A model generated the notes under the pieces. It was not told where the DNA came from and made no database searches. It saw only the letters and a program-made list of their open reading frames with translations. Positions 27,365-61,967 of a stretch of DNA of 64,000 bases are shown here, in pieces (within the stretch, counting starts at the first letter, position 1; the number at the start of each line of letters is the position of its first letter). The translations under genes and the position numbers were made by a program. The DNA is taken from positions 672,001 to 736,000 of the forward strand of contig OZ244561.1 in the NCBI GenBank assembly GCA_965217585.1, given 5' to 3'. The DNA comes from Candidatus Latescibacterota bacterium (GTDB taxonomy: Bacteria; Latescibacterota; UBA2968; UBA8231).

Positions 27365-27366
27365 GG

Positions 27367-29775: not shown

Positions 29776-30105
29776 ATGAAAAAGAGCCATCGCACGGCAG
29801 ACCGGGGTCGTTTTTCGGCCCAGCGCAAAAGTGAAGCGGTCCTTCGCCTGTTAGGCGGTGCAGAGCTGGAGTTATTATCGCGTGAATACAAAGTGACGGC
29901 CGCTAAACTGAGCCAATGGCGCGATGCTTTCTTGGCGGCCGGCCAAGCGGGTCTGCGGTCAAGCGGTTCGGAGGTGCCCTCAGCCCAACTCGAAAAGTTG
30001 CAGGCCAAAGTGGGCGAGTTGACCATGGCCAACGATTTGCTTGAGCACAAAATTGAGCACTTGGAACGCGGCCGGTCTTTACCAGCGCGGCGGTCGAAGC
30101 CATGA
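29776..30105 (+). CDS. IS OrfA (HTH + coiled coil)
   Basis: RFSAQRKSEAVLRLL...LSQWRDAFL...LQAKVGELTM; SD AAAGGAG. Confidence 0.88.
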   Translation: MKKSHRTADRGRFSAQRKSEAVLRLLGGAELELLSREYKVTAAKLSQWRDAFLAAGQAGLRSSGSEVPSAQLEKLQAKVGELTMANDLLEHKIEHLERGRSLPARRSKP

Positions 30106-34312: not shown

Positions 34313-34344
34313 CGGGAGTTTTTTTGCTATCATAATAATTTTTC

Positions 34345-34375
34345 TTGACCCCCCAAGGCTCATATATTAATAATT
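34345..34375 (+). promoter_or_regulatory. Putative promoter, homologous to the promoter at 36508
   Basis: TTGACCccccAAGGCTCATATATTAATAAT versus TTGCTCctcacAAGACTCATATATATAAT. Confidence 0.55.
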
Positions 34376-34401
34376 AAGGAATAAGGCAAAGTTTAGTTTT
34401 T

Positions 34402-34432
34402 GGGGCGAAATTATATAGTTTCGCCCCTTTTT
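34402..34432 (+). terminator. Terminator-like hairpin in the leader of the 656-aa gene (copy 1)
   Basis: GGGGCGAAA-ttatatag-TTTCGCCCC-TTTTT; homologous to 37626..37662. Confidence 0.7.
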
Positions 34433-34455
34433 AACCCGACCCGGAAAAAACAGAC

Positions 34456-36426
34456 ATGCTTTTATCCCAATCGACAGGTTATTTTGTCCTTGCGTTGCTG
34501 GGCTTGGCCCTGTTTTCGACGAAGGCTTCCGGCGTCATTATCTACCGAGTCGGCACCCCGTTTGCCGCAGCGGAGAAGGACAGCCTCCAGGACCTGGGGA
34601 TCGACTTTAGAGAAATCAGCTGGTCGTTTTCGGCGCTGGAGGAAGGCCTCGAAGTAGACTCTTTAAGCGCCGGCTCCCTGCAACCCAATTTCTTCGATGA
34701 GGACGAGAATATCGCCCGGACCGCCCTGCTCAGAGGTGGTCGGATAAGCATAAATATCACGGGGCAGGAAAATACCCTATTAGCACAGGTGCTCCTGGAT
34801 GGAGATCCGAGTACGGCTTATGTGTGGCCGGAGGCCACTGGAGTCGCAACGAGGAGCGCCAGGGTAACCCTTGATCTGGGCGGAAAATTCCTCGTCAAGA
34901 AGGTGGGTTTCCGCCCCTTGGCGGAAAATCCGGGACGCTTTATAGAGAACTTCGGGGTTGGTATCGGCAATGAGCTCAAGAACACCTCTTGCGGGCAATG
35001 TATTGCGAGTCTCCCATTGGCAAATATTCAAAAACTGGGCGGCATAGCCTCGGGGCCGAGGATAAACGAGAACACAGATCCTGAGGTCACGGCGCTCCTC
35101 AATCCGCCGGATGGGGTGGAGATCCGCTTTCTCCAACTACATATTGACCGCGTAACCCCCAAGGCGATAGAGCTAGCCGCATTCGAGGTCTTTGGCGGCG
35201 GTTTCGTCAACCAAGCCTCCTATCTATCCGACATCATCGAGCTGGACGACCTCGCCAGTTGGGGCCCCATCTCCTGGTCGGGACGGCAGGATCCCAACGC
35301 CCGGATCGATATCCGCACCCGAACGGGTGCCGACCTGCAGCCGGATATCTTCTGGGAAGCCCGCCCCGAACACCAAGACAGCGTAAAGTACCTCCAAGGC
35401 GGGGGCACCCTCACAGCGAAGGACTACAAAACCCGCTACAACCGGCTCCCCGATGTGTTCAAGCCGGTAGAGCAACGCAACCGGGTCAGTCCCGATACGG
35501 AAAACTGGAGCTTCTGGTCGAGCCCCTACGATTTTGGCAAACCCGGTGCCGATGTGGTCTCTCCCAGTTCGCGCCAATTCATTCAACTCAGCGCCGATTT
35601 TACCTCCACTACCGAGGATGGGGGCAAAATCGACTATATCGAATTCAAAGCCTCCGTGCCACCGGCCGTGCGCGGGATCGTGGGTGAGATCTTCCCGCCC
35701 GAGACCCAGATCGGCGAGGTGACCCAGTTCACCTATTTCATCAAGCCGACCATTCGGGCGGGCGATCAGGGCTTTGACAGCGTGGAGATTGCCACCCCGT
35801 CGGGGTTTACCTCGGTGGATTCGCTGCGCATAGAGGGGGTTGATCAGGCCGATTTCACCTGGACGCCCCAGCCGGACGGACTGGGCTTTGAAGTGCAGTT
35901 GCCGCGCAAGCTAGGGCCAACCGACAGCGGGGCAGTTCTGGAGGTGGTATTCAAGGCCCCGGTGTTGAGAGAAGTGGGCACCTTTTTTGACGGTCGGGTG
36001 TTCGACAGTGCGAAACCGCACGAGGTGCGGCAGCAGATAGAGCCGGGCAATGCCGCTGATGAGGCCGAGAGCGAGCTGCTTTCGGTGAGAACGTCCGTGG
36101 GTCGATCCTTGTTGTTCGCGCCCCGGGTTTTTCCCCGCATCTTTACCCCCAACGGCGATGCCATCAACGAGGTATTGAATATCTCCTACACTCTCTTGCG
36201 GGTCACGGCACCCGTGCCGGTCTCGGTAGCGATCTACGATCTTTCCGGTGCCCTGATAAAGCAGGTGTACGCGGGGGATGACTCCGTTGGCGAGTACGCC
36301 CGAACCTGGGACGGCACCGATGGTTCCAACCGTCGGGTGGTGCCGGGGATCTATCTATATCGCCTAGCCGTGGATCTGCACGCAGAGACGGAAATCAGCA
36401 GCGGTATTATCTCTGTGGTCTATTAG
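34456..36426 (+). CDS. Secreted modular protein with F5/8-C-like domain and FlgD/T9SS-type-B-like C-terminal domain (paralog A)
   Basis: Signal peptide; LLDGDPST...LDLG; WSFWS..Y...SP; GEIFP; FTPNGDAINE...IYDLSG...WDGTD...PGIYLY...VVY*. Confidence 0.85.
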   Translation: MLLSQSTGYFVLALLGLALFSTKASGVIIYRVGTPFAAAEKDSLQDLGIDFREISWSFSALEEGLEVDSLSAGSLQPNFFDEDENIARTALLRGGRISINITGQENTLLAQVLLDGDPSTAYVWPEATGVATRSARVTLDLGGKFLVKKVGFRPLAENPGRFIENFGVGIGNELKNTSCGQCIASLPLANIQKLGGIASGPRINENTDPEVTALLNPPDGVEIRFLQLHIDRVTPKAIELAAFEVFGGGFVNQASYLSDIIELDDLASWGPISWSGRQDPNARIDIRTRTGADLQPDIFWEARPEHQDSVKYLQGGGTLTAKDYKTRYNRLPDVFKPVEQRNRVSPDTENWSFWSSPYDFGKPGADVVSPSSRQFIQLSADFTSTTEDGGKIDYIEFKASVPPAVRGIVGEIFPPETQIGEVTQFTYFIKPTIRAGDQGFDSVEIATPSGFTSVDSLRIEGVDQADFTWTPQPDGLGFEVQLPRKLGPTDSGAVLEVVFKAPVLREVGTFFDGRVFDSAKPHEVRQQIEPGNAADEAESELLSVRTSVGRSLLFAPRVFPRIFTPNGDAINEVLNISYTLLRVTAPVPVSVAIYDLSGALIKQVYAGDDSVGEYARTWDGTDGSNRRVVPGIYLYRLAVDLHAETEISSGIISVVY

Positions 36427-36464
36427 GAGGTAGAATTGCTAAACTCAGTGCAAACAAATAAATA

Positions 36465-36484
36465 GGCCACTTAAGGTGGTTTTT
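36465..36484 (+). terminator. Weak intrinsic terminator after paralog A
   Basis: GGCCAC-ttaag-GTGGTT followed by a T-run. Confidence 0.45.
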
Positions 36485-36507
36485 AAAAACTTAGTTTAAT
36501 TTTTTTG

Positions 36508-36552
36508 TTGCTCCTCACAAGACTCATATATATAATAAGGCTTATATATATG
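36508..36552 (+). promoter_or_regulatory. Strong sigma70-type promoter with overlapping inverted repeat
   Basis: TTGCTC (36508-13), 17 bp, TATAAT (36531-36); AT-rich UP-like region upstream; CATATATATAA-taaggc-TTATATATATG (36525-36552). Confidence 0.75.
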
Positions 36553-36663
36553 GTTTGTACTTTTGCTACCTCCCCGAACATCTGAAAGGAGGTGAGGTTT
36601 AGGAGGAGTAAAAAGTAGCGCTTGCCAAAGTTCCGCACTCATTCAACGGAGGATTTTATTAAG

Positions 36664-37593
36664 ATGAAGAAAACCATGACTTTAGTATTTTTGGTGCTAG
36701 GCTTTGTGCTCTTCACCTTCTCAGTAAGCTCGGCTCACCTGCGGCCAGATGTGAATTTTGCTGCGGTACAGGTGCCCATTGGGGTCGCCGGTATCCAAGA
36801 CTATGTACCAGACGGCGATCTCAGCGAGTGGGAAAACATCCCCTCGATCTTCTGGGTGACCCACGATGATCTGGTAGAAACCGTCAGAAACATCGGAGAT
36901 CCGGATGCCTCTAATCTTGCCGTGAGAGTTATTGTCGGGTGGCACCCGGACACGGACCAGATCATCATGATGGAGGACAGGTTCGACGACGCCTTTTTTG
37001 GCACCCATGATGGTTACCAAGAGACGATCGAGTTTGTCATCGATACCGATCACAGTGCAGATCCTCAGTTCTTCAACGTGCAAGATATCGGTCTCGATCC
37101 GGACAGGTACTCTGGTGCTCTGACGCAGAATTACCGCTACCAGCTATGGAATGAGCCACCAGCGGATTTGTGGCTTTGGGGTGGAGCGCCGTGGGCTGGC
37201 GTGCCTCCCTATGCTGGACTCGGCTGGAGTTTTGACGGCGACCTGAATGGTGGGTCGGGCAACCTGAGCATGGAGATGTACATGACCGCGTTCGATGATT
37301 TGCCCAATCCGAGCACCGGTCCCGACAGTCCGGAAGTGCTCTTCCACGATTTAGTGGAGGGCGAAATCATCGGCCTAGGCTTTGCCCTTCAGGACGCAGA
37401 TGATCCGGAATCGAGCCGTTACAACGGCTATTGGACGAACGGCGGCGACACCGAACTCTACATCAAGGCGACCTCATTGGTCGACTACACGCTGCTTGGC
37501 TGGAATGCCGGTCTATGGGTAGAAGGAGATGACACGGCCTCATCAGTTGAGTCCGATTCTTGGGGCCGCATAAAGTCGACCTTTACCCACTAA
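36664..37593 (+). CDS. Secreted acidic DOMON/CBM9-like protein with C-terminal 'VESDSWGRIK' motif
   Basis: Signal peptide (VSSA), DGDLSEW, IEFVIDTDHS, GEIIGLGFALQDAD; ends TASSVESDSWGRIKSTFTH; SD GGAGGA before ATG 36664. Confidence 0.8.
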   Translation: MKKTMTLVFLVLGFVLFTFSVSSAHLRPDVNFAAVQVPIGVAGIQDYVPDGDLSEWENIPSIFWVTHDDLVETVRNIGDPDASNLAVRVIVGWHPDTDQIIMMEDRFDDAFFGTHDGYQETIEFVIDTDHSADPQFFNVQDIGLDPDRYSGALTQNYRYQLWNEPPADLWLWGGAPWAGVPPYAGLGWSFDGDLNGGSGNLSMEMYMTAFDDLPNPSTGPDSPEVLFHDLVEGEIIGLGFALQDADDPESSRYNGYWTNGGDTELYIKATSLVDYTLLGWNAGLWVEGDDTASSVESDSWGRIKSTFTH

Positions 37594-37625
37594 GGATTAA
37601 TGTTTGGGAGGGTAAAGCTTAGTTT

Positions 37626-37662
37626 GGGGGGCGAAATTATAGTAGTTTCGCCCCCCTTTTTT
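37626..37662 (+). terminator. Intrinsic terminator between the DOMON-like gene and paralog A' (copy 2)
   Basis: GGGGGGCGAAA-ttatagtag-TTTCGCCCCCC-TTTTTT. Confidence 0.8.
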
Positions 37663-37688
37663 AATAACCTAGACCGACAAGAACAGGT

Positions 37689-39650
37689 ATGCTTTTACCC
37701 CAATCGACAGGTTATTTTGTCCTTGCGTTGTTGGGCTTATCCCTGTTTTCGACGGAGGCTTCCGGCGTGATTATCTACCGAGTTGGAAGCCCATTTACCG
37801 CAGCGGAAAAAGACAGTCTCCAGGACCTGGGAATCGACTTTAGAGAACTCGACTGGTCGTTTTCCGAGCTGGAGGAAAGCCTCGAATTGGACTCTTTAAG
37901 CATCGGTTCCCTTCAACCCAATTTCTTCGATGAGGACGAGGACATCGCCCAGACCGCCTTGAGCAGAGGTGGAGAGGTGCACATAACCGTATTCGCGCAT
38001 GAAAACAGCTTGGTCGGGCAGGTGCTCTTGGATGGGGATCCGAGCACGGCTTATGTGTGGGAAGAGGCCGTTGGAGTCAGTTCGCGCCAAGCTAGGGTAA
38101 CCCTCAATCTGGGCGGAAAATTCCTCGTCAAGAAGGTGGGTTTCCGCCCCTTGGCGGAAAATCCGGGACGCTTTTTAGAGAGTTTCAGTGTTGGTGTCAC
38201 CAATGTGCCATTCGAAACTTTCCGCATTCCGACTCTCCCCGCAGTTAATGTTCAAAAACCGGGCGGCACCGCCCCAGGGCCGAGAATAAACGGGAACACA
38301 GATCCTGAGGTCCTCGTCCTCCTCAATCCGCCGGATGGGGTGGAGATCCGTTTTCTCCAGCTAGATATTGACCGCGTAACCCCCAAGGCGATAGAGCTAG
38401 CCGCATTCGAGGTCTTTGGCGGCGGTTTCGTCAACCAAGCCTCCTATCTATCCGACATCATCGAGCTGGACGACCTCGCCAGTTGGGGCCCCATCTCCTG
38501 GTCGGGACGGCAGGATCCCAACGCCCGGATCGATATCCGCACCCGAACGGGTGCCGACCTGCAGCCGGATATCTTCTGGGAAGCCCGCCCCGAACACCAA
38601 GACAGCGTAAAGTACCTCCAAGGTGGAGGCACCCTCACAGCGAAGGACTACAAAACCCGCTACAACCGGCTCCCCGATGTGTTCAAGCCGGTAGAGCAAC
38701 GCAACCGGGTCAGTCCCGATACGGAAAACTGGAGCTTCTGGTCGAGCCCCTACGATTTTGGCAAACCCGGTGCCGATGTGGTCTCTCCCAGTTCGCGCCA
38801 ATTCATTCAACTCAGCGCCGATTTTACCTCCACTACCGAGGATGGGGGCAAAATCGACTATATCGAATTCAAAGCCTCCGTGCCACCGGCCGTGCGCGGG
38901 ATCGTGGGTGAGATCTTCCCGCCCGAGACCCAGATCGGCGAGGTGACCCAGTTCACCTATTTCATCAAGCCGACCATTCGGGCGGGCGATCAGGGCTTTG
39001 ACAGCGTGGAGATTGCCACCCCGTCGGGGTTTACCTCGGTGGATTCGCTGCGCATAGAGGGGGTTGATCAGGCCGATTTCACCTGGACGCCCCAGCCGGA
39101 CGGACTGGGCTTTGAAGTGCAGTTGCCGCGCAAGCTAGGGCCGACTGACAGCGGGGCGGTCTTGGAAGTGGTATTCAAGGCCTCGGTGTTGAGAGCAGTG
39201 GGCACCTTCTTTGACGGCCGGGTGTTCGACAGCACGAAACCGCACGAAGTGCGACAGCAGATAGAGCCGGGCAATGCCGCTGATGAGACCGAGAGCGAGC
39301 TGCTTTCGGTGAGAACGTCCGTGGGTCGATCCTTGTTGTTCGCGCCCCGGGTTTTTCCCCGCACCTTTACCCCCAACGGCGATGCCATCAACGAGGTATT
39401 GAATATCTCCTACACTCTCTTGCGGGTCACGGCACCCGTGCCGGTCTCGGTAGCGATCTACGATCTTTCCGGTGCTCTGATAAAGCAGGTGTATGCCGGC
39501 GACGATCCTATCGGCGAGTACACCCGCTCTTGGGATGGCACCGATGGTTCCAACCGTCGGGTGGTGCCGGGGATCTATCTATACCGCCTAGCGGTAGATC
39601 TGCACACAGAGACGGAAGTCAGCAGCGGTATTATCTCTGTGGTCTATTAG
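37689..39650 (+). CDS. Secreted modular FlgD/T9SS-B-like CTD protein (paralog A')
   Basis: Same architecture as 34456..36426; near-identical C-terminal two thirds. Confidence 0.85.
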   Translation: MLLPQSTGYFVLALLGLSLFSTEASGVIIYRVGSPFTAAEKDSLQDLGIDFRELDWSFSELEESLELDSLSIGSLQPNFFDEDEDIAQTALSRGGEVHITVFAHENSLVGQVLLDGDPSTAYVWEEAVGVSSRQARVTLNLGGKFLVKKVGFRPLAENPGRFLESFSVGVTNVPFETFRIPTLPAVNVQKPGGTAPGPRINGNTDPEVLVLLNPPDGVEIRFLQLDIDRVTPKAIELAAFEVFGGGFVNQASYLSDIIELDDLASWGPISWSGRQDPNARIDIRTRTGADLQPDIFWEARPEHQDSVKYLQGGGTLTAKDYKTRYNRLPDVFKPVEQRNRVSPDTENWSFWSSPYDFGKPGADVVSPSSRQFIQLSADFTSTTEDGGKIDYIEFKASVPPAVRGIVGEIFPPETQIGEVTQFTYFIKPTIRAGDQGFDSVEIATPSGFTSVDSLRIEGVDQADFTWTPQPDGLGFEVQLPRKLGPTDSGAVLEVVFKASVLRAVGTFFDGRVFDSTKPHEVRQQIEPGNAADETESELLSVRTSVGRSLLFAPRVFPRTFTPNGDAINEVLNISYTLLRVTAPVPVSVAIYDLSGALIKQVYAGDDPIGEYTRSWDGTDGSNRRVVPGIYLYRLAVDLHTETEVSSGIISVVY

Positions 39651-39678
39651 TCTTAGTTAATGAAGCGGGTAGCGATCT

Positions 39679-42318
39679 ATGACCTCATTAAAACGAAATG
39701 GCAAACCAAAGAGAACGATCCTAGCTTGTCTTTTATTTCCCATGATCTGGGGAGGATTATTTGTCGACTCGGTTGCTTGGGGACAGCGGGTGGACCAAGG
39801 GGGGTACGCCATAGAGGACGGGAGCAAGGTGGTCATCGATTCAAAAGACCAATGGGATCTCTGGCAGTCTGTTCACAAGACGATCCAGATCAGCGAAGAG
39901 GGGGAAGTGCGGCCTGCCTTCATCCGCAAGGGGATAAACGCTATCGCAAATGCCGCTGAGTTTGGAGGCGGTATCCGAGCCGCGGGTTCTAATCTTGCGG
40001 CCGCGGATGCCCTTTTGGACGGCGATATGAACACCTTCTGGGAACCGGATCTTTCAGATCTTCCAGAGAACTGGTGGGTACAAATTGATCTGGGACGGGG
40101 GGTATCTGCTAACAAGATTGTCCTCAAGTTTGTCGGGGAGGAGTTGGGGGATCCATTCCTCCACTTCGCGGTCACCACGTCTCAGGGGAAAGAATCCCTT
40201 GGCGCGCTCCAGTTTAGGAGGGTTTTCAGAACCGATCGACCGGGCCTTAATCAAAGAGTCTTCGAAGTCGATTTAACCAGCCTGCCGCCGACGAAATATC
40301 CAAATGTTGTCGGAGACTATACCGGGGACATGATCAGATATGTAGGAGTGGGCGTTACAGATAGCAATTACGGCAAGGCCCAAAAGGTCTCGGAGGCCGA
40401 GTATCTGAATCTTGTGCCCGAAGAGCAGGGAGATATAGAGTACTTCCGCCGAGAAGTATCGGGAAGGCTAAGGGTGCTGGAAGGGAAGGAGGATTGGGAT
40501 GCCCTCGAGGAGAGCCAAAAAGGGCCTTTAGTCTATTACCGCCGAGAGCGTCCAAGGCTTGCAGAGGTAGAAGTTTGGTCAATCGGCGACAATATCGGCG
40601 TGACCGTACTCGATCGTGGGGGCAAAGTGACGAGCTCCGAAAGCAATGGAGTTGAATTTGTCTTGGTGGATGGGGATATCTACAGTACTGAAGCCGCGCC
40701 GTTCTGGCCCATCAGAGGAGGGTATAATCCCGATAGGTTGCTACCGACAGAGTCACCAAAACAAGAGCGCGATGCAGTTGTAGATCTTGGAGGCACCTTT
40801 TTCGTGGACAACATCCGCTTGTTTTTTCCGGTTCACCCTGGCCCCCCAAGAGCCTACAGGATTCGGCTGTCAGACGGTTCTAGGCATGCCGACGGGACCT
40901 TGGTCTGGAAAGAAGTTGGAGCGGAGCCTAATGTCGTGGGTGGACAACTGTATCACGACCACAAATTCCCTCTCACTATAGCCAAATTTTTTGCCTATAC
41001 CTACAGGCTCTTTGTGGGGCAGGGCCGCAAAGGGTTTGCCGAGGTACAGCTTTTTGGAGAAGGCTTCATGCCGGAGTCCACGATCATATCCAACTTTGGC
41101 GGCACCGCCCCTTTTATAGAGCTGGGGAGGACTTCGCAGAATCTGGCTACAATAGAATGGGATGCGGATACACCGCCAGGTACGGATGTTATTCTTCAGA
41201 CCAAGACGGGTGATACGGTCGAAAATATAACCCACTACTACAAGAAGAACGGGGACGAATATCCCGGCACAGAAGAGGAAGCCAAGGAAGAGTACGAAAC
41301 TCAAAAGAAATTCTTCGGGGACGCATCGGTAGGGGCCATTGTCACTGAAACTATCCCGGGAAGCGATTGGAGCGGTTGGAGTGAGCGCTATTTTAAGCCG
41401 GGCGATGCGATAAAATCGCCCAGTCCCAGAAGATTCGTGTCGGTCAAAGCGACGTTTCTGACGGACAATCCTATGGTATCGGCGACCTTGCGTTCGGTGA
41501 CGCTCAATTTCGTAAACCCCGTGGCCCGCAGCGTAGTTGGCGAGATTCTGCCTCACCGTTTGAAAGAGATAGGCTCCAGTCAGGAACTGACCTATTTCAT
41601 CCGTCCGACCTTTGAGACCGTCAGTAAGGGCTTCGATGATATCCTCATAGAGGCCCCTGCCGGCGTCAAAATGAAATTCAAGCAACTCAATGTGGACCTA
41701 GCGGGGAGCTCGACTGAAAGTTATACAGCCCAGAGCGAAGGCTTTCAGATCATTTCCGAAGAGTCCGATTCGCTCTGGGTGCGTCTGCCCACTGTTATTA
41801 AAACCACTAGTGGGACGACACAAGTCGGGGTCCAATTTGATGCGACCATATTCGGCTTTACTACCTTCTTCAATGGTTCCATAGCCCATTCTTCCTTTGA
41901 AGATTCCTGGCAAAGAGTAGATGATGGCAATGCAAATGGGATTCTGGGAGACAGCGAAAAGACCGTTGTTCTAGCCCTTGAAGGCAAAGAGGTACTGGGG
42001 GCTATCGCGCTCGACCGCGAGGTTTTCACGCCCAATGCCGATGGCATCAACGATGAGCTGTCGGTGCGCTTTCCGCTCACGCGCGTGTCCAAAGCAACCC
42101 CGGTCCAGGTGCAAATATACGATCTCAGTGGCCGCCTCGTGCACGAATTGATCAATGAGCCACTCTCTGCTGGACTCCATACGGTGCCTTGGACAGGCCT
42201 CGATACCTTTGGAGAGCTAGTGCCCCCTGGCGTATATCTTCTGAGAATCGCTATTGATACCGATTCGGATTCGGTGAAAAATACTTCGGTTAATCACTTG
42301 GTACATGTCGTCTATTGA
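39679..42318 (+). CDS. Secreted modular protein, two F5/8-C-like domains + FlgD/T9SS-B-like CTD
   Basis: LLDGDMNTFW...WVQIDLG; second LVDGD...VDLGG; WSGWS...SPSPRRF; GEILP; FTPNADGINDEL...IYDLSG...PGVY...VVY*. Confidence 0.85.
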   Translation: MTSLKRNGKPKRTILACLLFPMIWGGLFVDSVAWGQRVDQGGYAIEDGSKVVIDSKDQWDLWQSVHKTIQISEEGEVRPAFIRKGINAIANAAEFGGGIRAAGSNLAAADALLDGDMNTFWEPDLSDLPENWWVQIDLGRGVSANKIVLKFVGEELGDPFLHFAVTTSQGKESLGALQFRRVFRTDRPGLNQRVFEVDLTSLPPTKYPNVVGDYTGDMIRYVGVGVTDSNYGKAQKVSEAEYLNLVPEEQGDIEYFRREVSGRLRVLEGKEDWDALEESQKGPLVYYRRERPRLAEVEVWSIGDNIGVTVLDRGGKVTSSESNGVEFVLVDGDIYSTEAAPFWPIRGGYNPDRLLPTESPKQERDAVVDLGGTFFVDNIRLFFPVHPGPPRAYRIRLSDGSRHADGTLVWKEVGAEPNVVGGQLYHDHKFPLTIAKFFAYTYRLFVGQGRKGFAEVQLFGEGFMPESTIISNFGGTAPFIELGRTSQNLATIEWDADTPPGTDVILQTKTGDTVENITHYYKKNGDEYPGTEEEAKEEYETQKKFFGDASVGAIVTETIPGSDWSGWSERYFKPGDAIKSPSPRRFVSVKATFLTDNPMVSATLRSVTLNFVNPVARSVVGEILPHRLKEIGSSQELTYFIRPTFETVSKGFDDILIEAPAGVKMKFKQLNVDLAGSSTESYTAQSEGFQIISEESDSLWVRLPTVIKTTSGTTQVGVQFDATIFGFTTFFNGSIAHSSFEDSWQRVDDGNANGILGDSEKTVVLALEGKEVLGAIALDREVFTPNADGINDELSVRFPLTRVSKATPVQVQIYDLSGRLVHELINEPLSAGLHTVPWTGLDTFGELVPPGVYLLRIAIDTDSDSVKNTSVNHLVHVVY

Positions 42319-42345
42319 AGTCAATCCGGGGAAGGGATAGATAGG

Positions 42346-44058
42346 TTGAGGTTGAGTAGACCACATTTTTTCAGACCATCGTGGGTGTGGCTCCTTTTCT
42401 TTGCATCAACAGGACAGGCTCACGGAGAGGTCGTCATCGTAGGGGGTGGTCCGGGTACATCTGCGTGGGACGGACAATATTCTGAGATATCCGTCATCGA
42501 TTTTGAAACTAATCCCGGTCAGATCCAGCCCATTCAAAATGAACCCGAGGATAATATTGCCTTAAAAATACTCGAAAGAGGAGGTAAGGTAACATCGCCC
42601 AATGCGAGAATAGTGCTCGAATTATCCGACGCTGAGTCAATTAAACTCTTAAATCATATGGTCAGCGGTGATAGGACCAAGGCCTTTGAAGTTAAGGGGA
42701 TCGTTGCTATAGGAGTCATAATTGATATAGACCTAGGCCAGCGTTTTGCGGTCAACAGACTCAGGTTTTTTCCGAGGGAAGGTTTCGAAGGCTTTTTTCT
42801 GAAGGGCTACGAAATATCTTTAAACGATGGTAGTGAGGAGCAGAGGACCTTGGCGGGAAGGCCCGATTTCAGGCTCTTTAAAACAGTAGAGCGCAACACC
42901 AAATCAATAGTCGAAGAGAATATACCACTGCAATTTGTCCGTTTTATAAAGTTAAAACAGCTTGTTAGAGGAGAGTGGGAGATCGACGAGATGCAAATCT
43001 TCGGCGAAGGATTTGCCTCTGAAGCTTCGTACACATCAAAGGTATTCGATCAACAACAGCCTGCCGTCTTTGGGGGGATAATATGGTCCGGGGGGCATAT
43101 AGGCGAACCGACCAAAGCAGGTGTCACCCTATCTACAAGGAGCGGCACCAGTCCAGATCCCAGTGACTCTTTAGCCTGGAGCACCTGGTCGCCTCCCTAC
43201 CCTCCGGGAGTTCTCACTGATATCTCATCACCGGCACCCCGTCAATTTTTTCAGTTTCGCTTCCTCTTTACAAGCGACGATTTTTTTTCTGCGGCCACGG
43301 TTGACTCGCTCGCATTTGAGGTTTCTCCTGCACTGACTGATTCGGTGAAGGGCGAGATCCAGCCGCAAAATGCCTTTATCGGGCAAGCTACTACATTCAC
43401 CTATACCCTGAGGTCGTTTAATAGCAGAGGCTTCGACCGCCTCCAGATAAAGACCCTAGCACCGGTAGATGTGGTACGATCAGTGGCAATAGATGGAACC
43501 GATATCCCCATCGACTTTGTCAATGTCGAAGACGGGGTCCAGATCAGCTTCCCCAAGATTATGGGAAACAGCACCCTTAAAGTGGTCTTCGACAGCATAG
43601 CCCTGCAGTACAACACCGTCTTCAGCGGCAAGGTCTCCGATAGCTCCAGATCCGACAATCTGCCCCAATTGGTTGTAGCGGGGGACACAGATACCCTGAC
43701 CGCAGGAGGAGACCTTTCCGTCACGATCCTCGTGGGCAAAAACCTGCTCCACGCGCTGGACGTGGCTCCTGCCATTACACCGAATGGAGACGGAGTAAAT
43801 GATGAACTCCTCATAACCTATGATATCGTCAACCTGACGCATGCAGCTCCGGTTTCGGTAAGGGCATATGATCTTGCTGGCAGACTTGTAAAGGAGATTT
43901 ATTATGGTTTGGATTCCAGTGGGAGATACCAGAAGGCCTGGGATGGAACCGACAATGGTAGACAAAAGATGGGACCTGGAATCTATCTGGTGCACCTAGA
44001 GATAGAGGCAGATTCGGGGACAGAAGGCAAAACGGCAATCGTATCTTTAGCCTATTGA
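42346..44058 (+). CDS. Secreted modular protein with FlgD/T9SS-B-like CTD
   Basis: Signal peptide (AHG); IDLGQRF; WSTWS..Y...SPAPRQFFQ; GEIQP; ITPNGDGVNDEL...YDLAG...WDGTD...PGIY...LAY*. Confidence 0.85.
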   Translation: MRLSRPHFFRPSWVWLLFFASTGQAHGEVVIVGGGPGTSAWDGQYSEISVIDFETNPGQIQPIQNEPEDNIALKILERGGKVTSPNARIVLELSDAESIKLLNHMVSGDRTKAFEVKGIVAIGVIIDIDLGQRFAVNRLRFFPREGFEGFFLKGYEISLNDGSEEQRTLAGRPDFRLFKTVERNTKSIVEENIPLQFVRFIKLKQLVRGEWEIDEMQIFGEGFASEASYTSKVFDQQQPAVFGGIIWSGGHIGEPTKAGVTLSTRSGTSPDPSDSLAWSTWSPPYPPGVLTDISSPAPRQFFQFRFLFTSDDFFSAATVDSLAFEVSPALTDSVKGEIQPQNAFIGQATTFTYTLRSFNSRGFDRLQIKTLAPVDVVRSVAIDGTDIPIDFVNVEDGVQISFPKIMGNSTLKVVFDSIALQYNTVFSGKVSDSSRSDNLPQLVVAGDTDTLTAGGDLSVTILVGKNLLHALDVAPAITPNGDGVNDELLITYDIVNLTHAAPVSVRAYDLAGRLVKEIYYGLDSSGRYQKAWDGTDNGRQKMGPGIYLVHLEIEADSGTEGKTAIVSLAY

Positions 44059-44097
44059 TCCATTGCGATTTCAACTAAAAAATAAGGTGGGATTCTC

Positions 44098-46812
44098 ATG
44101 GTGGGTCATACTCTCAGATCTAAAGTGCTTAATATAGTTTCAACAGCCATGGTTTGCTCTGTAGGTTCACTGGTGCTGATTTTCAACACTCACTCTGTGG
44201 CTCAAGATACTGCTTCGACGCGAATAAAAGGGATACGTCGAGGTGGTGAGCTTACCTTTGAACCAACCGGACCTGGTGTCATGTTTGGTGCCTTGGACCC
44301 GGCGGTCAAAAAATGGTACGTGCCGCAGGAACTCTACTCGGAGTATCAGTGGAAGCAGTGGGAGTACACCAACTACGCCCGGAATCGCTACCGGCGCTAT
44401 GTGAATACTGCCAACGAAGGAGATTATTTCTACGATCTCTACGGTTCCTATATCACCCGGGGTTGGTTGATCTACGACTGGACCCAGACCCAACCCCAGC
44501 AGGGGGGCAGCAACCTGTTCAAAGACTCGAAGTTCGCGAGCTTTTTCAGCAACCTAATCATAGCCTCCGATCAAAAGGGACAGCACTTTCTGGCAGTAAC
44601 CATAGGCAATCAGATCAGGTCAACCCTGACGCCGATGACCTTCTCTAAACCGGCGTTTGACGGGATTCAGGTGGATTATCAGTCCGACAAATACGAGGTG
44701 ACCACCATCCTTTCACGGATCAGTTCCCCCGGAGGTGCTGGTGTACGCAACCCCGCCATTAATGAGAGGACCACCCTGACGACCTTGATGGGGGGGAGAA
44801 CGACAGCGCAGGTGGGAGATCTTGTCAAAGTCGGAGCCAACTATGTAAGCGCCCACAACTCCTTTCAACTCCTCGATGCCTTTGAGGGGAGTCCGCGAAG
44901 CGGTTCGATTACCTCGAGTCAAAATGTCGAGAACATAACACAACTTTTCGTCCGTCTTTCGGACGATTCACCCGAGGACAACGAAGGTGGCACCACCCTC
45001 TTTGCATGGGATCTGATCATAGAAGCCGATGTTGTAGAAATCGACCCTGTTACGGGAGAGCCGACCACCCGGAGAGAAAAGGTACGGGCAAGCGAAGTAG
45101 GACTTACACCTTCTCCCCAGGGTGGCTTTCAACGCCGGGGATTCTGGGAAGCCAGCGGTTCCGAGCAGATAGACCTAGAATTCGATCTTACGGACTCGAG
45201 ATACACAGGCCCTGATCCAACAGAAATAAGACAGGTAACGTTCGAGTTGGTGGTGGCAAACGACTACAGGATTGAGGTGTCTTCAAACCGTCAGACAAAC
45301 AGGCAAGGCAGCAAGGTCTTCCTGCTGGCAGCCCGAGCCTTAGACAACGTCAAGGATGGCTCGAATTTAAGGGTCCTCGAAATCCCTTACGGCCTACCGA
45401 CAGCCACCGAAATATACGGGGGAACTCTTGAGGTAGAAAATTTTCTGGGATTTGATTTTTACGGAGAATTCGACCGGAGCACCAGTTACAGAAAGTATCC
45501 CAACACGGCGCAAACAAAACACTTATCAGGCTCTGATGAAGGCGATGGCTGGATAATGACCTTATCGAAGAGGACCGATCCATGGTTCTTCTTCAGCGAA
45601 GCCTACAGAATGGACCACGATTACAATACAAGCGCAATTCTGGCCAAGGGAGAGGTTCTTATAGACTACGAAGACAGGACTCAATTTTACTACGAATTTG
45701 TTGACGACAACGACGATCAGGATAGAAGACCCGATTGGTCGAGGGTATTCGAAGACACGGATGTGGAGGTGTTCCCCGGCCTAGACGAGAACTATGATTT
45801 TATATCTGATTTTAATCAAAATGACAGCAGAGACCGACCCAATCTAGTGCCCGACTACGAAGAGCCATTTTTAAGGTATAACACAGACCGACCCGAGTAT
45901 CTGTTCGGTGTCGACATGAACAACAATGTGTGGGTAGATCGATTCGAAAACGACGATGAACCAGACCTTCCCTATAATAGAGATCACAGAGGGTACAATG
46001 TTTATTTAGGTGCCGATATCGTTCCGGGGATAAGGGCCACATTCGGCCACAACAATGAGAAACTCCTTGCAGGTGCCAGGAACAACACCACCAGCTATTT
46101 TCTGTTGACTCTGAACAAGGACTACCCAGGTCTGGGCAAGCTGAAGATCTTCGAGAATCTGAAGCTAGCAAAGGACGATATAGAAAACGATCTACGCCAG
46201 TGGGACGAAGTGGAAAGAAGGAACGTTCCGACCATCGATCCACTGGCCGCCCAAGATACATGGATAAGTTCGGCTTATGCAAGTTTTGACTATACAAAGG
46301 TCAGGGACCTGAACATTATTAGCAAAATAAAATACGATCGGTGGCATCAACGGAAAAATCAGCCGGATTTGAGGGAGAATTTTACTTTTTTCGGCTTGAT
46401 CAATAAGGTAGACTACAGATTTAAGATTGGGACTTTTGATATCCGGCCGAAGATTAAAAACGAACTGAGGATAGAAACACCAGTACTTAAGACATCTCCC
46501 AAACGCCAAGAAGATACCATACTTATGATTCTGCTGGCACGATGGCCCTTGCTCAACCTTTCCTCGATTGAAGCGGGAGTGGAGTATACTATCTTCCAGC
46601 AGCTCAGAGATTCGGATAAAGCCGTTCGGGAAGGGCTCGACGACGACTTTACTGAAATCGTGGGAGCAGCGCAATTCTCCAACACTTCAAACTACCTGGG
46701 ATACAGCCTGACAACCCAGATGGGCTTCAGACTGAGTAGAAGGAACCTTGATGGAGAAGATGCCGAAATGGGCCGAGTAGCCTTTGCCACGGTTTATGCC
46801 GGTTTCGAATAA
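44098..46812 (+). CDS. Hypothetical exported protein, probable outer-membrane beta-barrel with acidic Ca-binding-like loops
   Basis: Signal peptide (SVA-Q); amphipathic beta-strand pattern; C-terminus AFATVYAGFE; DDNDDQD, DENYDFISD, DMNNNVWVD motifs. Confidence 0.7.
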   Translation: MVGHTLRSKVLNIVSTAMVCSVGSLVLIFNTHSVAQDTASTRIKGIRRGGELTFEPTGPGVMFGALDPAVKKWYVPQELYSEYQWKQWEYTNYARNRYRRYVNTANEGDYFYDLYGSYITRGWLIYDWTQTQPQQGGSNLFKDSKFASFFSNLIIASDQKGQHFLAVTIGNQIRSTLTPMTFSKPAFDGIQVDYQSDKYEVTTILSRISSPGGAGVRNPAINERTTLTTLMGGRTTAQVGDLVKVGANYVSAHNSFQLLDAFEGSPRSGSITSSQNVENITQLFVRLSDDSPEDNEGGTTLFAWDLIIEADVVEIDPVTGEPTTRREKVRASEVGLTPSPQGGFQRRGFWEASGSEQIDLEFDLTDSRYTGPDPTEIRQVTFELVVANDYRIEVSSNRQTNRQGSKVFLLAARALDNVKDGSNLRVLEIPYGLPTATEIYGGTLEVENFLGFDFYGEFDRSTSYRKYPNTAQTKHLSGSDEGDGWIMTLSKRTDPWFFFSEAYRMDHDYNTSAILAKGEVLIDYEDRTQFYYEFVDDNDDQDRRPDWSRVFEDTDVEVFPGLDENYDFISDFNQNDSRDRPNLVPDYEEPFLRYNTDRPEYLFGVDMNNNVWVDRFENDDEPDLPYNRDHRGYNVYLGADIVPGIRATFGHNNEKLLAGARNNTTSYFLLTLNKDYPGLGKLKIFENLKLAKDDIENDLRQWDEVERRNVPTIDPLAAQDTWISSAYASFDYTKVRDLNIISKIKYDRWHQRKNQPDLRENFTFFGLINKVDYRFKIGTFDIRPKIKNELRIETPVLKTSPKRQEDTILMILLARWPLLNLSSIEAGVEYTIFQQLRDSDKAVREGLDDDFTEIVGAAQFSNTSNYLGYSLTTQMGFRLSRRNLDGEDAEMGRVAFATVYAGFE

Positions 46813-46864
46813 TCTAAAGATGACCTATTTCTTGCCCGCTTTTGGGTGCAGAGCGAGTTTGCGT

Positions 46865-48538
46865 ATGGACGCTAAAGTTTGGGGCTTCTCAATCGCACTT
46901 TTGGCTATATGCATGAGTTGCGCAGAGGAGACTGATGCTCCAGAAGTCACTCAGGATGATCTGGTAGTCGCCGAGGTGGGAGACAAGGCGATAACCGTCA
47001 AGCAATTGCGAGAATTCAGCGATAACCTTCCCAAACGTCACCAGAGCATAAAAACAGGGCTGGAGAGAGAAAGGGATCACCTGCAGACAATGATCGATAT
47101 GGAGTTTCTGCTAATGGAGGCCCTAAACGAGCGTATTGCCCAAAGCCCTGATTTTCTCAGAAAAATGGAAACAATAAAAAAAAGAAAGCTTGTCGGTGTA
47201 TTTCAACAAAGAAATATAAAGGTAAAAATAAAAGAAAATGAGATACAAGAATACGTGGAAAGGGAGGAACTCTCTAGGGCACTCAGGCTAGGGGATATAT
47301 TAGTCGATAGCAAGGATAAAGCAGAGGCTGTGTTCGCGGAACTCAAAGGAGGGGAAAGTTTTGCGCAGGTTGCTGAGAAATGGTCCATGAATAAAGATAC
47401 TTCAACTAGGGGTGGCGATATGGGCCAATATCTCATCAAAGATCAAATGATCCCAATTCTCCAGGATACGTTATTCTCTCTTGCGGTGGGCGAGGTATCA
47501 GCACCCATAAAAATTGGCAACCGCTATTCGATTTTTAAAGTCATCGCTGAAAAGATCATCAATCTCAACCCACAACAGCGGACGAAGATCGAACAGGATT
47601 TCGGAATAATTAAACTTGGTCTTGAAAGGGCGGCTTTGGTAGAACAGCTCAAGAATAGGTACCGTCTTGAAGTGGACCGAGGAGGGTTGAAAGCTTTTGT
47701 TGAAAGTTTGCGTCAAGGCGCATTATTTGCTGCGGAGGATGAACACAACATCGTCATCTATAGATACGACAAGGGACAAATAACCGCAGGAGATCTTGTC
47801 GACGTGGCTGGTGATCTTAAGGGTGATGTCCTTGCCAGTCTTACAGATGGCAAACGAGTACTCTCTTTTGCAGAGAAATATGCCATTCCCGCCATAATGA
47901 TAATGGAAGCCGCTCTGGATGCCGGCATAGATAAGGAAGAAGAGATAACAACATGGCTCAAAGATCAGAGGAGACAGCTTTTACTAGCAGAACTTAGGAG
48001 CAAAGCGTTGGAGGGCAAAATTAACCTGTCTACGGAGGCCCTTCAGCAGCACTACGACAGCCATCCGAAAAAGTACCTGCATCCTGAGCAACTAGATATA
48101 CAGGAAATACTGGTAGAGACAGAGCCAGAGGCACAGCGCCTTATCGAGAAGATTCAAGAGGGGGTCCCGATGGGCGAACTCGCACGGAAGTATACTCTCC
48201 GGTCCGTACAGGACCAGGGTGATGAAGAAGGCAGATTCCATTTTCACGAACACGAAAGTCCGCATTTTGGCGGTTTAGTAGAGGCCGCGTTTGAGGCTCA
48301 GATAGGGGAACTAAAAGGCCCTGTTGAGGTGAAGGACGGTTATTCTATATTCAAGGTACTATCTAGGGAACGAAAGAGGGAGACCTTTGCGGAGGCCAAA
48401 TGGCGGGTCAGAAGAGAGGTTAAAAAGATTAAATCCCGGGCGGTATTTAATCGATATGTAGAAGGCCTGCGGAATAAATACGAATCACATGTAAGCATTC
48501 GGGAAGATCATCTCAAAACTGCTTTCGAGATGAGGTAG
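46865..48538 (+). CDS. SurA/PrsA-like lipoprotein with two parvulin PPIase domains
   Basis: Lipobox CMSC; VAEVG; GESFAQVAEKWS..K...RGGDMG; second domain IQEILV...ELARKYT...GPVEVKDGYSIFKV. Confidence 0.88.
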   Translation: MDAKVWGFSIALLAICMSCAEETDAPEVTQDDLVVAEVGDKAITVKQLREFSDNLPKRHQSIKTGLERERDHLQTMIDMEFLLMEALNERIAQSPDFLRKMETIKKRKLVGVFQQRNIKVKIKENEIQEYVEREELSRALRLGDILVDSKDKAEAVFAELKGGESFAQVAEKWSMNKDTSTRGGDMGQYLIKDQMIPILQDTLFSLAVGEVSAPIKIGNRYSIFKVIAEKIINLNPQQRTKIEQDFGIIKLGLERAALVEQLKNRYRLEVDRGGLKAFVESLRQGALFAAEDEHNIVIYRYDKGQITAGDLVDVAGDLKGDVLASLTDGKRVLSFAEKYAIPAIMIMEAALDAGIDKEEEITTWLKDQRRQLLLAELRSKALEGKINLSTEALQQHYDSHPKKYLHPEQLDIQEILVETEPEAQRLIEKIQEGVPMGELARKYTLRSVQDQGDEEGRFHFHEHESPHFGGLVEAAFEAQIGELKGPVEVKDGYSIFKVLSRERKRETFAEAKWRVRREVKKIKSRAVFNRYVEGLRNKYESHVSIREDHLKTAFEMR

Positions 48539-48628
48539 AGGCGCGTGCTGTATGTCCCGTGTAACCGGCGGTATCCGACTAGTTGCCGCGCTAGGTCTTG
48601 ACGCGGATTGAGGTCGGCAAGAAACGGG

Positions 48629-50623
48629 ATGGAATTGAAAAATCAAGTCCCAACGGAATACCAAGATTATATAAAAAGCCAGCAGCCATCCGGTCAGGAT
48701 CTTGAAGGCATTCCCGCACGGGGAATACTGATCGGGGCGGTGCTGGCTTTTCTGCTCAATTTCCTAGATGCCTATGCCACGACCATCATCCGTGGCTCGT
48801 ACCTGACCTTAAACTTCAGCACTCCGGCCGCGCTGTTTTTTTTGTTTTTTGTGGTCCTGGCCAGCGGTCTGGTCAACCTCCTCCGCCGACCTCTGGCTCT
48901 GAATCGATCCGAGCTGATCACGATCTACATTATGCTGGTAGTGGCCTGCTGTATCCCGGGCATGGGCTTCACGCAATTCATAATTCCCTGTCTTTTGGGT
49001 TCCACTTACTATGCCACGCCCGAGAACAACTGGGATTTCCTCTACAACCAGTACATCCCCGACTGGATGATCCCCCGGGGCGAAAACGTGGCGCGTTTCT
49101 TCTACGAAGGTCTGCCCGAGGGTGCGGCCATCCCCTGGGGCGCTTGGGTAGTACCGCTGAGTTTCTGGTACGGGTTTTTTCTGGTGCTCAGCTTCGCCAT
49201 GATCTGCACCATGGTCATCCTACGTCAGCAGTGGATGGACCGGGAAAAGCTAGTCTATCCACTGGTCCAAGTGCCCATGGAGATGATCGGTCGAGAAAAG
49301 GGAGGAATGATTGGTCGGTCGTTTTTCACCAACAAAGCCATGTGGATCGGCTTTGCCGTATCATCCATTCTGCTCAGTATCAACGGCCTGCACTCCTACT
49401 TTCCGACCTTTCCGCATACCACCAAGACCTTCGTATTGCCCTTATTCCGCGATACGGTCAGCCTGAATTTCTGGTTTAGTCCGCCTTGGACAGGCTTTTT
49501 CTACTTCGTCAACCTCGATATCACGGCCTCAATCTGGATATTCTACATTCTCACCACTGTCCAGCGGGGCATTTTCAATATCGTCGGCTTGCAGAGCACG
49601 GAGCGGATCGATTTCTACTCTATCGAACCTTTTCTGGCCCATCAGGGCATGGGCTCCATGATCGTCTTTGTGCTAGTGGGGTTGTGGGTGGGACGCGGCC
49701 ATTTACAAAATGTATACCGCAAAGCCTTCCATGGCGACGAAGAGGTCGACGACAGCGGCGAGATGCTATCCTACCGGCAGGCCCTTTTCGGCCTGCTAGC
49801 GGCGCTTGCCCTAGTGGTGGTCTGTCTATGCATGATGGGACTAACTTTTCCCACGGCACTTTTATTCATCTTTGGTGCGATGATGCTGTTTATAGGGCTA
49901 ACTCGGGTAGTGGCCGAAGGGGGCATCCCGGCCATGCGGCCCCCTATCATGACTTCGAGCTTTGTCATTTCGGGGGCCGGTGCCTCGGCCTTGGGTGCCT
50001 CGGGTCTGGTAGCCCTGGGCTTTTCCTACGGCTGGCACTCCGAAGTGCGCTCCTTTGTCATGGCGTCTGTAGCCAACGGACTGAAGATGGGTGAGATCAT
50101 CACCGGTTCCAAGCGCCGGCTATTCTGGGCCGTGGTCATTGCCATTGTGGTCAGTCTGGCCGGCTCGTCGTATATGACCCTAGTGCTGGCCTACAAATAC
50201 GGGGGCATCAATCTCAATCCGCTCTTTTTTGTGGGGCAGGCCCCCACCTTCGGTCCTCGGGATATGGCCCCGCGCATCGCCGCAGAGCTGCCCGGCCCAA
50301 GACTGGACGCTTGGCTGTTCATGGGCATTGGTGGGGGGGTGATGGCCCTGCTGATGTGGGCGCGGCACCAGTTCGTCTGGTGGCCGCTCAATCCCCTCGG
50401 CTATACCATCAGCGCCAACTGGAAGACGGGACATATCTTTGGCAGCGCCTTTCTCGCGTGGCTGCTCAAACTGTTAATTCTGCGCTACGGTGGTTCCAAG
50501 CTGTACCGGGGTTTGCGGCCATTTTTTCTCGGCCTGATCTTGGGCGAGATCGTGACGGCGGGCGGATGGCTGGTGCTGGATTATATAACCGGACACATGG
50601 GGAGCTTTCTCACGCAAATCTAA
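48629..50623 (+). CDS. Multi-TM inner-membrane protein (DUF6785/DUF6784-like, putative transporter)
   Basis: About 15 hydrophobic segments; YYATPEN.W, FFYEGLP.G.AIPW.AW, QW...E.LVYPLVQVP, RVVAEGG, WWPLNPLG, PFFLGLILG. DUF name is from recall. Confidence 0.82.
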   Translation: MELKNQVPTEYQDYIKSQQPSGQDLEGIPARGILIGAVLAFLLNFLDAYATTIIRGSYLTLNFSTPAALFFLFFVVLASGLVNLLRRPLALNRSELITIYIMLVVACCIPGMGFTQFIIPCLLGSTYYATPENNWDFLYNQYIPDWMIPRGENVARFFYEGLPEGAAIPWGAWVVPLSFWYGFFLVLSFAMICTMVILRQQWMDREKLVYPLVQVPMEMIGREKGGMIGRSFFTNKAMWIGFAVSSILLSINGLHSYFPTFPHTTKTFVLPLFRDTVSLNFWFSPPWTGFFYFVNLDITASIWIFYILTTVQRGIFNIVGLQSTERIDFYSIEPFLAHQGMGSMIVFVLVGLWVGRGHLQNVYRKAFHGDEEVDDSGEMLSYRQALFGLLAALALVVVCLCMMGLTFPTALLFIFGAMMLFIGLTRVVAEGGIPAMRPPIMTSSFVISGAGASALGASGLVALGFSYGWHSEVRSFVMASVANGLKMGEIITGSKRRLFWAVVIAIVVSLAGSSYMTLVLAYKYGGINLNPLFFVGQAPTFGPRDMAPRIAAELPGPRLDAWLFMGIGGGVMALLMWARHQFVWWPLNPLGYTISANWKTGHIFGSAFLAWLLKLLILRYGGSKLYRGLRPFFLGLILGEIVTAGGWLVLDYITGHMGSFLTQI

Positions 50624-50683
50624 AACCCTCCTCTGCTCGGCATGGTAGCGCAGAAGCGCCAGCCCCTCAAAGCCCTTTGGGTC

Positions 50684-61913: not shown

Positions 61914-61967
61914 CCTGCGGCAGAAGCGGTATCCCCCGTGGCGCATCTAACCCGGAGACGATCCCTC

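Follow-up and report, generated by a model that had tools for sequence, protein, structure and literature searches.

A recurrent six-family gene cassette of Latescibacterota that probably encodes an undescribed cell-surface complex

We analyzed a 64,000-nt stretch of DNA from a Candidatus Latescibacterota bacterium (hereafter the window) and found that eight genes at positions 34456–50623 include a cassette that probably encodes an undescribed cell-surface complex. The core of the cassette is six gene families: three types of secreted protein with a shared C-terminal domain (CTD), namely A4, A1/A2 and A3; B904, a secreted protein of an unnamed family; D323, a small secreted protein; and PPIase, a peptidyl-prolyl isomerase. 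The likeliest reading, which we put forward tentatively, is that of a surface-display complex anchored on B904. An earlier note on this DNA, made from the sequence alone, had described eight co-oriented genes here, and the open reading frames (ORFs) are as it described them, on the + strand and separated by short gaps, except that the start it gave (34330) falls in the intergenic leader. All eight proteins begin with a membrane or signal-peptide-like segment. The genes are:

34456..36426, + strand: A1, 656 aa, A1/A2 subfamily; CHU_C 33.0 bits, FlgD_ig 33.1 bits; matches the CTD hidden Markov model (HMM); modules in order: jelly-roll N-domain, WSxWS module, GEIxP immunoglobulin (Ig)-like module, CTD with terminal Tyr
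36622..37593, + strand: D323, 323 aa from the first TTG; secreted, candidate CBM9/DOMON-like protein
37689..39650, + strand: A2, 653 aa; recent duplicate of A1
39679..42318, + strand: A3, 879 aa; extra N-terminal F5/8-type-C domain; CHU_C and FlgD_ig at the C-terminus
42346..44058, + strand: A4, 570 aa; the subfamily directly upstream of B904
44098..46812, + strand: B904, 904 aa; secreted, unnamed family; candidate large outer-membrane β-barrel
46784..48538, + strand: PPIase, 584 aa; PrsA/SurA-type lipoprotein with two parvulin domains
48608..50623, + strand: TM, 671 aa; polytopic inner-membrane protein, DUF6785 and DUF6784; a looser associate

The grouping of these genes is not due to chance, because the arrangement recurs in other genomes. 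B904 loci were confirmed by tblastn in species-representative genomes (560 loci), and the best 80 were analyzed, with their ORFs labelled by similarity to the window proteins. The 80 are spread over 44 assemblies; two or more loci are present in 18 of the assemblies and six on one chromosome, counts that are lower bounds because 80 of the 560 loci were analyzed. The records are nearly all metagenome-assembled genomes of Latescibacterota, some being labelled Gemmatimonadota or Handelsmanbacteria. In 67 loci the flank reaches 2.5 kb or more, and in 66 of these the gene next upstream of B904, on the same strand, is of A type (best labelled A4 in 61); the gap between the two genes has a median of 18 nt (interquartile range 4–38, n = 81). 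Among the 55 loci with full flanks, A4 is present in 55, A3 in 53, A1/2 in 49 and all three in 48; a D323-like gene, counting a divergent cluster with the same tail, is present in 48, PPIase in 47 and DUF6785 in 31. The three A types, PPIase and D323 occur together in 39 of the 55, and together with TM in 21. Across hundreds of records the locus proteins are conserved at 25–95% identity. Co-location across genomes, which the earlier note had set as a test of its proposal, is thus borne out by the A–B904 adjacency and by the joint presence of the three CTD subfamilies. With order and content recurring in 44 assemblies and 17 paralogue groups, there is virtually no probability that we are dealing with chance neighbours or unreal ORFs, and we ruled that explanation out.

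The core families also diversify together. A tree built from 209 A proteins separates three clades; the A4 clade (74 tips, support 1.0) contains 69 proteins encoded directly upstream of B904, and the A3 clade (65 tips) is likewise supported at 1.0. Pairwise distances correlate with those of B904 at 0.968 for A4, 0.98 for A3, 0.975 for A1, 0.961 for D323 and 0.956 for PPIase, and at 0.721 for TM, all of these values being inflated by relatedness. Because the correlations include paralogous cassettes, they show that duplication and divergence affect the six families jointly, and TM to a lesser degree. At ≥60% identity the 104 B904 genes sort into 17 groups, at least five of which are represented in a single genome; the paralogy is therefore old and retained. 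Two B904 genes are present in 24 of the 80 loci. Tandem paralogues, the second scoring lower, were seen in L043–L047, L050–L055, L058, L064, L072, L074, L075 and L077, and such pairs may form a hetero-oligomeric outer-membrane unit.

Window positions 34088–50623 are colinear, at 92% DNA identity, with locus L001 of a Candidatus Latescibacterota chromosome. This agrees with the proposal in the earlier note that the DNA comes from a non-Bacteroidota lineage of the FCB (Fibrobacterota–Chlorobiota–Bacteroidota) group, of which Latescibacterota is a phylum.

The four A proteins share one module order, and the motifs listed for them beforehand, T(R/K)(T/S)G, WSxWS, SPxRxF, GEIxP, FTPNxD and the terminal Tyr, are all seen in the alignment. 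A1 and A2 are 89.6% identical in pairwise alignment; A1 is 29.8% identical to A4 over 598 aa and 25% identical to A3 over 612 aa, A3 having ~300 extra N-terminal residues. The A1/A2 pair is a recent duplication that includes the leader, as shown by direct DNA repeats (34432–34731/37665–37964 and 35002–35301/38226–38525). Terminator-like strong hairpins followed by T runs lie in this duplicated leader at 34402–34427 and 37626–37656, ~30 nt 5′ of the A1 and A2 start codons; they recur in the orthologous locus L001 only, and in Rfam, which returned tRNA only, they have no match. The proposal of an F5/8-C-like domain in all four proteins holds in part: A3 alone has a Pfam match (F5_F8_type_C and F5_F8_type_C_2, residues 108–171), and A4 is tied to it by profile comparison, the A3 F5/8-C profile aligning with the N-domain of the A4 family (hhalign E 2e-5, probability 77%). 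The A4-family profile further gives a weak match to a CBM6 structure (E 0.0023), a strong match to the Ig domain of FlgD (3osv, E 2.9e-8) and a match to the PorU CTD at E 0.17. Conservation of A4 is even along its length, and lipoboxes are found in just 4 of 75 A4 proteins (and 4 of 104 B904 proteins).

The CTD, which spans the C-terminal ~95 aa, is a homologue of the type-B CTD of type IX secretion systems (T9SS) within the FlgD-Ig superfamily, in line with the resemblance first noted. In A1–A4 it is matched by Pfam CHU_C at 31.6–35.1 bits and by FlgD_ig at 31.1–35.5 bits (cut-off 27 for both), and at E ≤ 1e-3 the CTDs of the A4 clade are matched by CHU_C in 33 of 33, by FlgD_ig in 32 of 33 and by TIGR04131 in 31 of 33 cases (best 5.8e-10). 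Among A proteins of at least 450 aa, 205 of 211 end in Tyr, and 196 of 211 carry the motif [FILVT][TSN]PN[GNAS]D 91–98 residues before the end. Identity between subfamilies is 38–39% in the CTD vs 23% in the adjacent Ig module. Within the window and the loci, a sample biased to B904 neighbourhoods, an HMM of the CTD gave 231 matches, which bar one marginal case fall in A-type proteins only. A search for homologues of the CTD region gave 31 matches among 396 candidates, mostly A4 orthologues, and is uninformative on the use of the CTD elsewhere.

B904 contains a single hydrophobic helix-like stretch, the signal peptide (residues 10–31), with a cleavage-type motif SVAQ↓D, and its 868 mature residues include no Cys. 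It has no match in Pfam (0 at E ≤ 10), NCBIfam or PDB sequences, no Pfam or NCBIfam match to the usher, TpsB/BamA, secretin, Plug or TonB-dependent receptor families, and no SLH, coiled-coil or peptidoglycan-binding domain in Pfam; profile comparison with the TonB-dependent receptor of the window gave E 0.22 (hhalign). Relatives are numerous, with 1137 at E ≤ 1e-3 in a word index and 986 at E ≤ 1e-3 in a HMMER scan of 1.84 billion representatives (50% clustering), and 'hypothetical protein' is the source name in every case seen. B904 defines a large unnamed protein family. Among its relatives the sole recurrent Pfam signal is SlpA_C (7 of 17 divergent members and 8 of 51 alignment members), all matches being below the gathering score; the best (E 2e-7, 30.2 bits, cut-off 35) maps to B904 residues 414–520. 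The nearest named Atlas cluster for B904 homologues is the DUF6029 barrel (0.89), which we treat as a lead only; the passage on DUF6029 in PMC9603273 discusses it just as a possible polysaccharide-export barrel.

The sequence pattern makes B904 a candidate membrane barrel. Residues 633–904 contain at least 13 amphipathic strands of 11–14 residues each, in which short gap-free turns alternate with longer loops bearing family indels, a pattern that is that of a predicted transmembrane β-meander. Self-comparison detects a weak hairpin repeat in this region (728–775 with 771–818, E 0.03) and a further repeat within the acidic region. If the similar strands seen by eye from about residue 150 onward are counted too, the barrel would have some 30 strands. 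The acidic insert (~525–630) is the most conserved part of the protein and contains an EF-hand-type loop, DMNNNVWVDRFE, at residues 606–617, with D606, N610 and D614 invariant; the loop is found in 102 of 103 B904 family members vs 0 of 322 unlabelled neighbour ORFs. Two other approaches were dropped. Crude counts of amphipathic strands failed to tell B904 apart from soluble β proteins or from the TonB-dependent receptor of the window, and mean-field direct coupling analysis of 247–316 family sequences (effective number, Meff, 60–150) was dominated by gap artefacts, with antiparallel ladders no better than parallel ones.

The assignment of D323 as a DOMON-like protein, made beforehand, has weak support, which comes from its relatives. 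The window protein itself has 0 Pfam matches; CBM9_1 is matched by 3 of 19 relatives (best E 4.3e-5), the family profile touches the xylanase CBM9 module 7nwn at a weak E of 0.041, and comparison with the CBM9_2 protein of the window gave an hhalign probability of 0.1%. The distinct C-terminal motif that was also noted is clearly present: the tail TAVExxSWGRIKxxF gave 57 matches in the window and the loci and in this sample is exclusive to the D323 family. Short and set off from the rest by a variable linker, the tail may serve as a strand for docking. A DxDHSGG motif is conserved in the family. Translation from the first TTG gives 323 aa in the window, and the L001 orthologue has 309 aa. Of 19 aligned members, 18 have a His residue right after the predicted signal-peptide cut, and this predicted mature N-terminal His recalls N-terminal-His metal (copper) sites.

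PPIase and TM differ in how closely they belong to the cassette. PPIase is a two-parvulin lipoprotein, as proposed, with Rotamase at 76.4 bits in two stretches, Rotamase_2 at 76.3 bits and SurA_N_3 at E 0.0014, and 32 of 51 homologues have a lipobox Cys. Its nearest solved relatives are PrsA (4wo7, E 1e-10), HP0175, PEB4 and SurA. The suggestion that it acts as the chaperone of the locus is strengthened by the way its distances track those of B904, as expected of a dedicated chaperone. TM contains DUF6785 (420.4 bits, E 1e-125) and DUF6784 (100.9 bits, E 5e-29) and at least 13 hydrophobic segments; the earlier proposal of a protein with about 15 membrane segments is thus right as to a polytopic protein, and its membership in the locus is loose, with DUF6785 in 31 of 55 loci and a correlation of 0.72. 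No relative of TM was found in the PDB, the homologue search returned unnamed DUF6785/6784 proteins only, and in the literature searched we found no mention of either domain and no function attached to them.

The known systems with which the cassette is most readily compared are the pairs of T9SS type-B substrates and PorP/SprF proteins, such as SprB–SprF and Fjoh_3952–Fjoh_3951 of Flavobacterium johnsoniae and PG1035–PorP–PorE of Porphyromonas gingivalis. Type-B CTD proteins bind PorP-like outer-membrane barrels and stay on the surface, according to PMC9143113, and F. johnsoniae has 12 type-B substrates that are often linked to cognate porP/sprF-like genes, commonly directly downstream (PMC12618676). 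Like these substrates, the cassette proteins have an Ig-like CTD of ~95–100 aa with an FTPNGDGxND-type start, and the genomes concerned hold several pairs of a CTD gene and an outer-membrane-type gene. The gene of the 904-aa protein, which the earlier note had proposed as the cognate barrel or platform, stands directly downstream of a CTD gene, as porP/sprF-like genes do in that account of Flavobacterium (PMC12618676). In contrast to type-B pairs, the partner belongs to an unrelated family of ~900 aa with an EF-hand-like acidic insert, three fixed subfamilies of CTD protein belong to the cassette, as do a CBM9-like protein and a lipoprotein PPIase of its own, and its CTD ends in an invariant Tyr and, in the window proteins, falls under the TIGR04131 cut-off. 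Neither B904 nor any of 27 representatives of the recurrent neighbours matched PorP/SprF, PorE or another T9SS family, and no PorE-like or T9SS gene was seen at the locus, which thus matches none of the T9SS cargo clusters described. In our literature search, which excluded supplements and subscription journals, we found no paper that combines Latescibacter* with T9SS, type IX secretion or FlgD, and the matching passages of the Latescibacteria single-cell genome paper (PMC4454575) do not mention such a locus.

Based on these observations, we propose the following arrangement. All parts of the cassette would be exported by Sec, and the lipoprotein PPIase would chaperone the exported parts in the periplasm. 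B904 would enter the outer membrane and there form a large barrel that binds Ca2+, and the three CTD proteins would reach the surface and be held there by docking of their CTDs on B904, in parallel to type-B CTD proteins and their cognate PorP/SprF partners in Bacteroidota. The jelly-roll domains thus put on display would attach to a polymeric ligand, probably a glycan; that the complex captures glycans is suggested by the jelly-roll and CBM-like character of these domains.

Several results weigh against this arrangement. As first noted, no T9SS core gene (SprA/Sov, PorV, GldK/L/M/N, PorU) was found among the 38 window proteins covered by the domain-family scans. Several other FCB phyla may have a T9SS (passages in PMC11285876 and PMC11205867), and Latescibacterota is not among the possible holders in the list given in PMC11285876. 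According to a passage of the same source, type-A CTDs tolerate C-terminal extension; the invariant C-terminal Tyr of the cassette differs from such extendable domains (PMC11285876). The NCBIfam TIGR04131 cut-off of 35 is missed both by the whole A1–A4 proteins (19.2–23.7 bits) and by the isolated A4 CTD (26.9 bits). CTD identity is 39.4% within cassettes vs 38.1% between them, a value that 0 of 500 shuffles reach and that is hardly cassette-specific, unlike what is seen in cognate type-B/shuttle pairs; the effect being so small, co-adaptation of the CTD to its own cassette was set aside. The even conservation of A4 (0.40–0.47) leaves no hypervariable binding domain. B904 has no above-threshold similarity to PorP/SprF or to any barrel family (PorP_SprF is matched by 0 of 51 relatives), and it is far larger than PorP/SprF proteins. 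A terminal aromatic residue is found in 1 of 103 B904 family members, the family ending in FxTxYAGL plus one or two polar residues. This lowers the barrel claim without excluding it, because other barrels have internal or non-canonical β-signals.

In a possible though unlikely alternative, the cassette would assemble and secrete its own products. B904 would then be an usher-like or two-partner-like translocon or platform that exports the three subunits and polymerizes or anchors them, PPIase a dedicated periplasmic chaperone and the C-terminal Tyr strand a recognition or strand-donation signal, with no need of a T9SS. The strict A4–B904 adjacency (66/67), the correlation of PPIase with B904 (r 0.956) and the set of three subfamilies (48/55) are in keeping with such autonomy, as are the detachable, strand-like C-terminal tail of D323, the window of 38 proteins with no T9SS gene and the terminal Tyr (205/211), which recalls outer-membrane β-signals, for example the ...TVSF that ends the TonB-dependent receptor of the window. 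Several paralogous cassettes per genome are also what chaperone–usher operons show. Those operons are paralogous and combine an outer-membrane protein of ~850–900 aa, a periplasmic chaperone and related subunits with a C-terminal aromatic motif; the cassette is like them in the size of its outer-membrane-type protein, in having a chaperone and in its related subunits with a conserved aromatic C-terminus. It is unlike them in that usher or PapD-like homology is lacking among the eight proteins (Pfam, NCBIfam), in that its chaperone is a parvulin lipoprotein and in that its subunits are multidomain proteins of 570–880 aa. Moreover, B904 has no similarity to ushers, TpsB/BamA or secretins, the weak SlpA_C signal being the one exception to its lack of matches; the CTD is homologous to T9SS CTDs, and nothing shows polymerization. 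We likewise consider unlikely a self-contained outer-membrane display/secretion system of Latescibacterota, independent of the T9SS, in which the Ca2+-binding B904 barrel is both translocon and anchor. The CTD with its free C-terminal Tyr strand would there be the signal for three subunit types, PPIase a private chaperone and the CBM9-like protein with its mature N-terminal His (His1) and SWGRIK tail a fourth, strand-docking subunit; just the Ig-like CTD fold would have been borrowed or inherited from the T9SS.

An uptake function akin to that of polysaccharide utilization loci is quite unlikely. It would make B904 a channel, the A proteins and D323 glycan binders and the DUF6785/6784 protein the inner-membrane importer of a Sus-like analogue, and it draws on the jelly rolls of carbohydrate-binding type (F5/8C, the CBM6 match, CBM9_1 in relatives), on the many copies (17 B904 groups at ≥60% identity, at least five in one genome), on recurrent neighbours, catabolic and transport genes among them (FG-GAP/ASPIC in 23 of 80 loci, FGE-sulfatase in 11 loci, a solute-binding protein accompanied by permease and ATPase), and on DUF6785 itself, present in 31 of 55 loci and again in the window between two GFO/IDH/MocA oxidoreductase genes. 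Sus-like loci are multi-copy and encode SusC/SusD with surface glycan-binding proteins; similarly, the cassettes are multi-copy, pair the gene of a large outer-membrane protein with an adjacent gene for a secreted protein of ~570 aa and add CBM-like surface proteins and, in some cases, a polytopic protein of the inner membrane. Unlike Sus loci, the cassette core holds no TonB-dependent receptor, Plug, SusD homologue, CAZyme or regulator, A4 and B904 are not lipoproteins, and conservation of the components is much stronger than among Sus paralogues. The core lacks glycoside hydrolases and lyases as well, B904 has no Plug or TonB-dependent receptor match, A4 has neither a SusD-like match (Pfam) nor a hypervariable region, and DUF6785 is the least coupled of the families (r 0.72). 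Highly unlikely is a structural envelope module, with B904 as an abundant SlpA-like protein and the A proteins as a Ca2+-stabilized coat that captures no substrate. SlpA of Deinococcus radiodurans forms a barrel of 30 strands whose pore contains Asp metal-site insertions (PMC9388160), and B904 is like it in being large and secreted and in having an Asp-rich insertion of metal-site type (compare PMC9388160); the SlpA_C matches in 8 of 51 relatives, the EF-hand-like loop (102/103) with the acidic insert, and the even conservation of A4 point the same way. Against this, the SlpA_C matches are weak, below the gathering score and ~90 residues long, B904 lacks SLH, coiled-coil and peptidoglycan-binding domains, its genomic context is another one, and many divergent paralogous cassettes per genome would be unusual for a structural coat. 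A defence-system reading was discarded, no nuclease, ATPase or similar domain being present at the locus (Pfam, NCBIfam).

The surroundings of the cassette were also compared. Recurrent neighbours in the 80 loci are genes for FG-GAP/ASPIC proteins (23), tetratricopeptide-repeat (TPR) proteins (27) and FGE-sulfatases (11), a sugar-type solute-binding protein with permease and ATPase, enolase-superfamily enzymes and oxidoreductases. GC content drops from ~0.60 to 0.39–0.57 over window positions 24000–50600. Upstream of the cassette lie:

23984–25555: TPR gene
25565–29649: two FG-GAP/ASPIC-UnbV genes
30102–31004: IS3-family transposase
31241–34312: fused MFS/spermidine-synthase/TPR gene, very AT-rich

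The fused gene is present in 9 of the 55 full-flank loci. In seven of the eight loci that have both, the DUF6785 gene adjoins the fused gene (L002, L004, L006, L009, L018, L022 and L023; in the window the two lie at 48608–50623 and 31241–34312), which suggests that they form a separate two-gene membrane module often found near the cassette. A second DUF6785/DUF6784 gene of the window (20667–22600), flanked by the two GFO/IDH/MocA oxidoreductase genes, is split over two overlapping ORFs in different frames: 20667–21887 covers positions 1–393 of the DUF6785 profile, and 21800–22600 covers 390–498 plus DUF6784. The split is due to a frameshift, a pseudogene or a sequencing error. In L001 the TM gene is followed, at 16532–17564, by a gene orthologous to the window oxidoreductase gene at 19501–20505, and colinearity returns at window position 50678; the difference between L001 and the window is a rearrangement with end points beside both DUF6785 copies. 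Three PhyH-family dioxygenase genes lie at 17685–18473, 52007–52819 and 61938–62780, and the family recurs in related loci.

If the cassette does encode a surface-display complex anchored on B904, the principle of a type-B CTD with a cognate outer-membrane partner would extend beyond Bacteroidota, with a wholly different partner protein. The fixed set of three subunits and the dedicated foldase offer testable handles, as do the invariant C-terminal Tyr and the EF-hand-like loop, and the repeated six-gene unit provides a route to learning how the cell surface is built, and polymers are met, in an FCB phylum that is widespread and uncultured.

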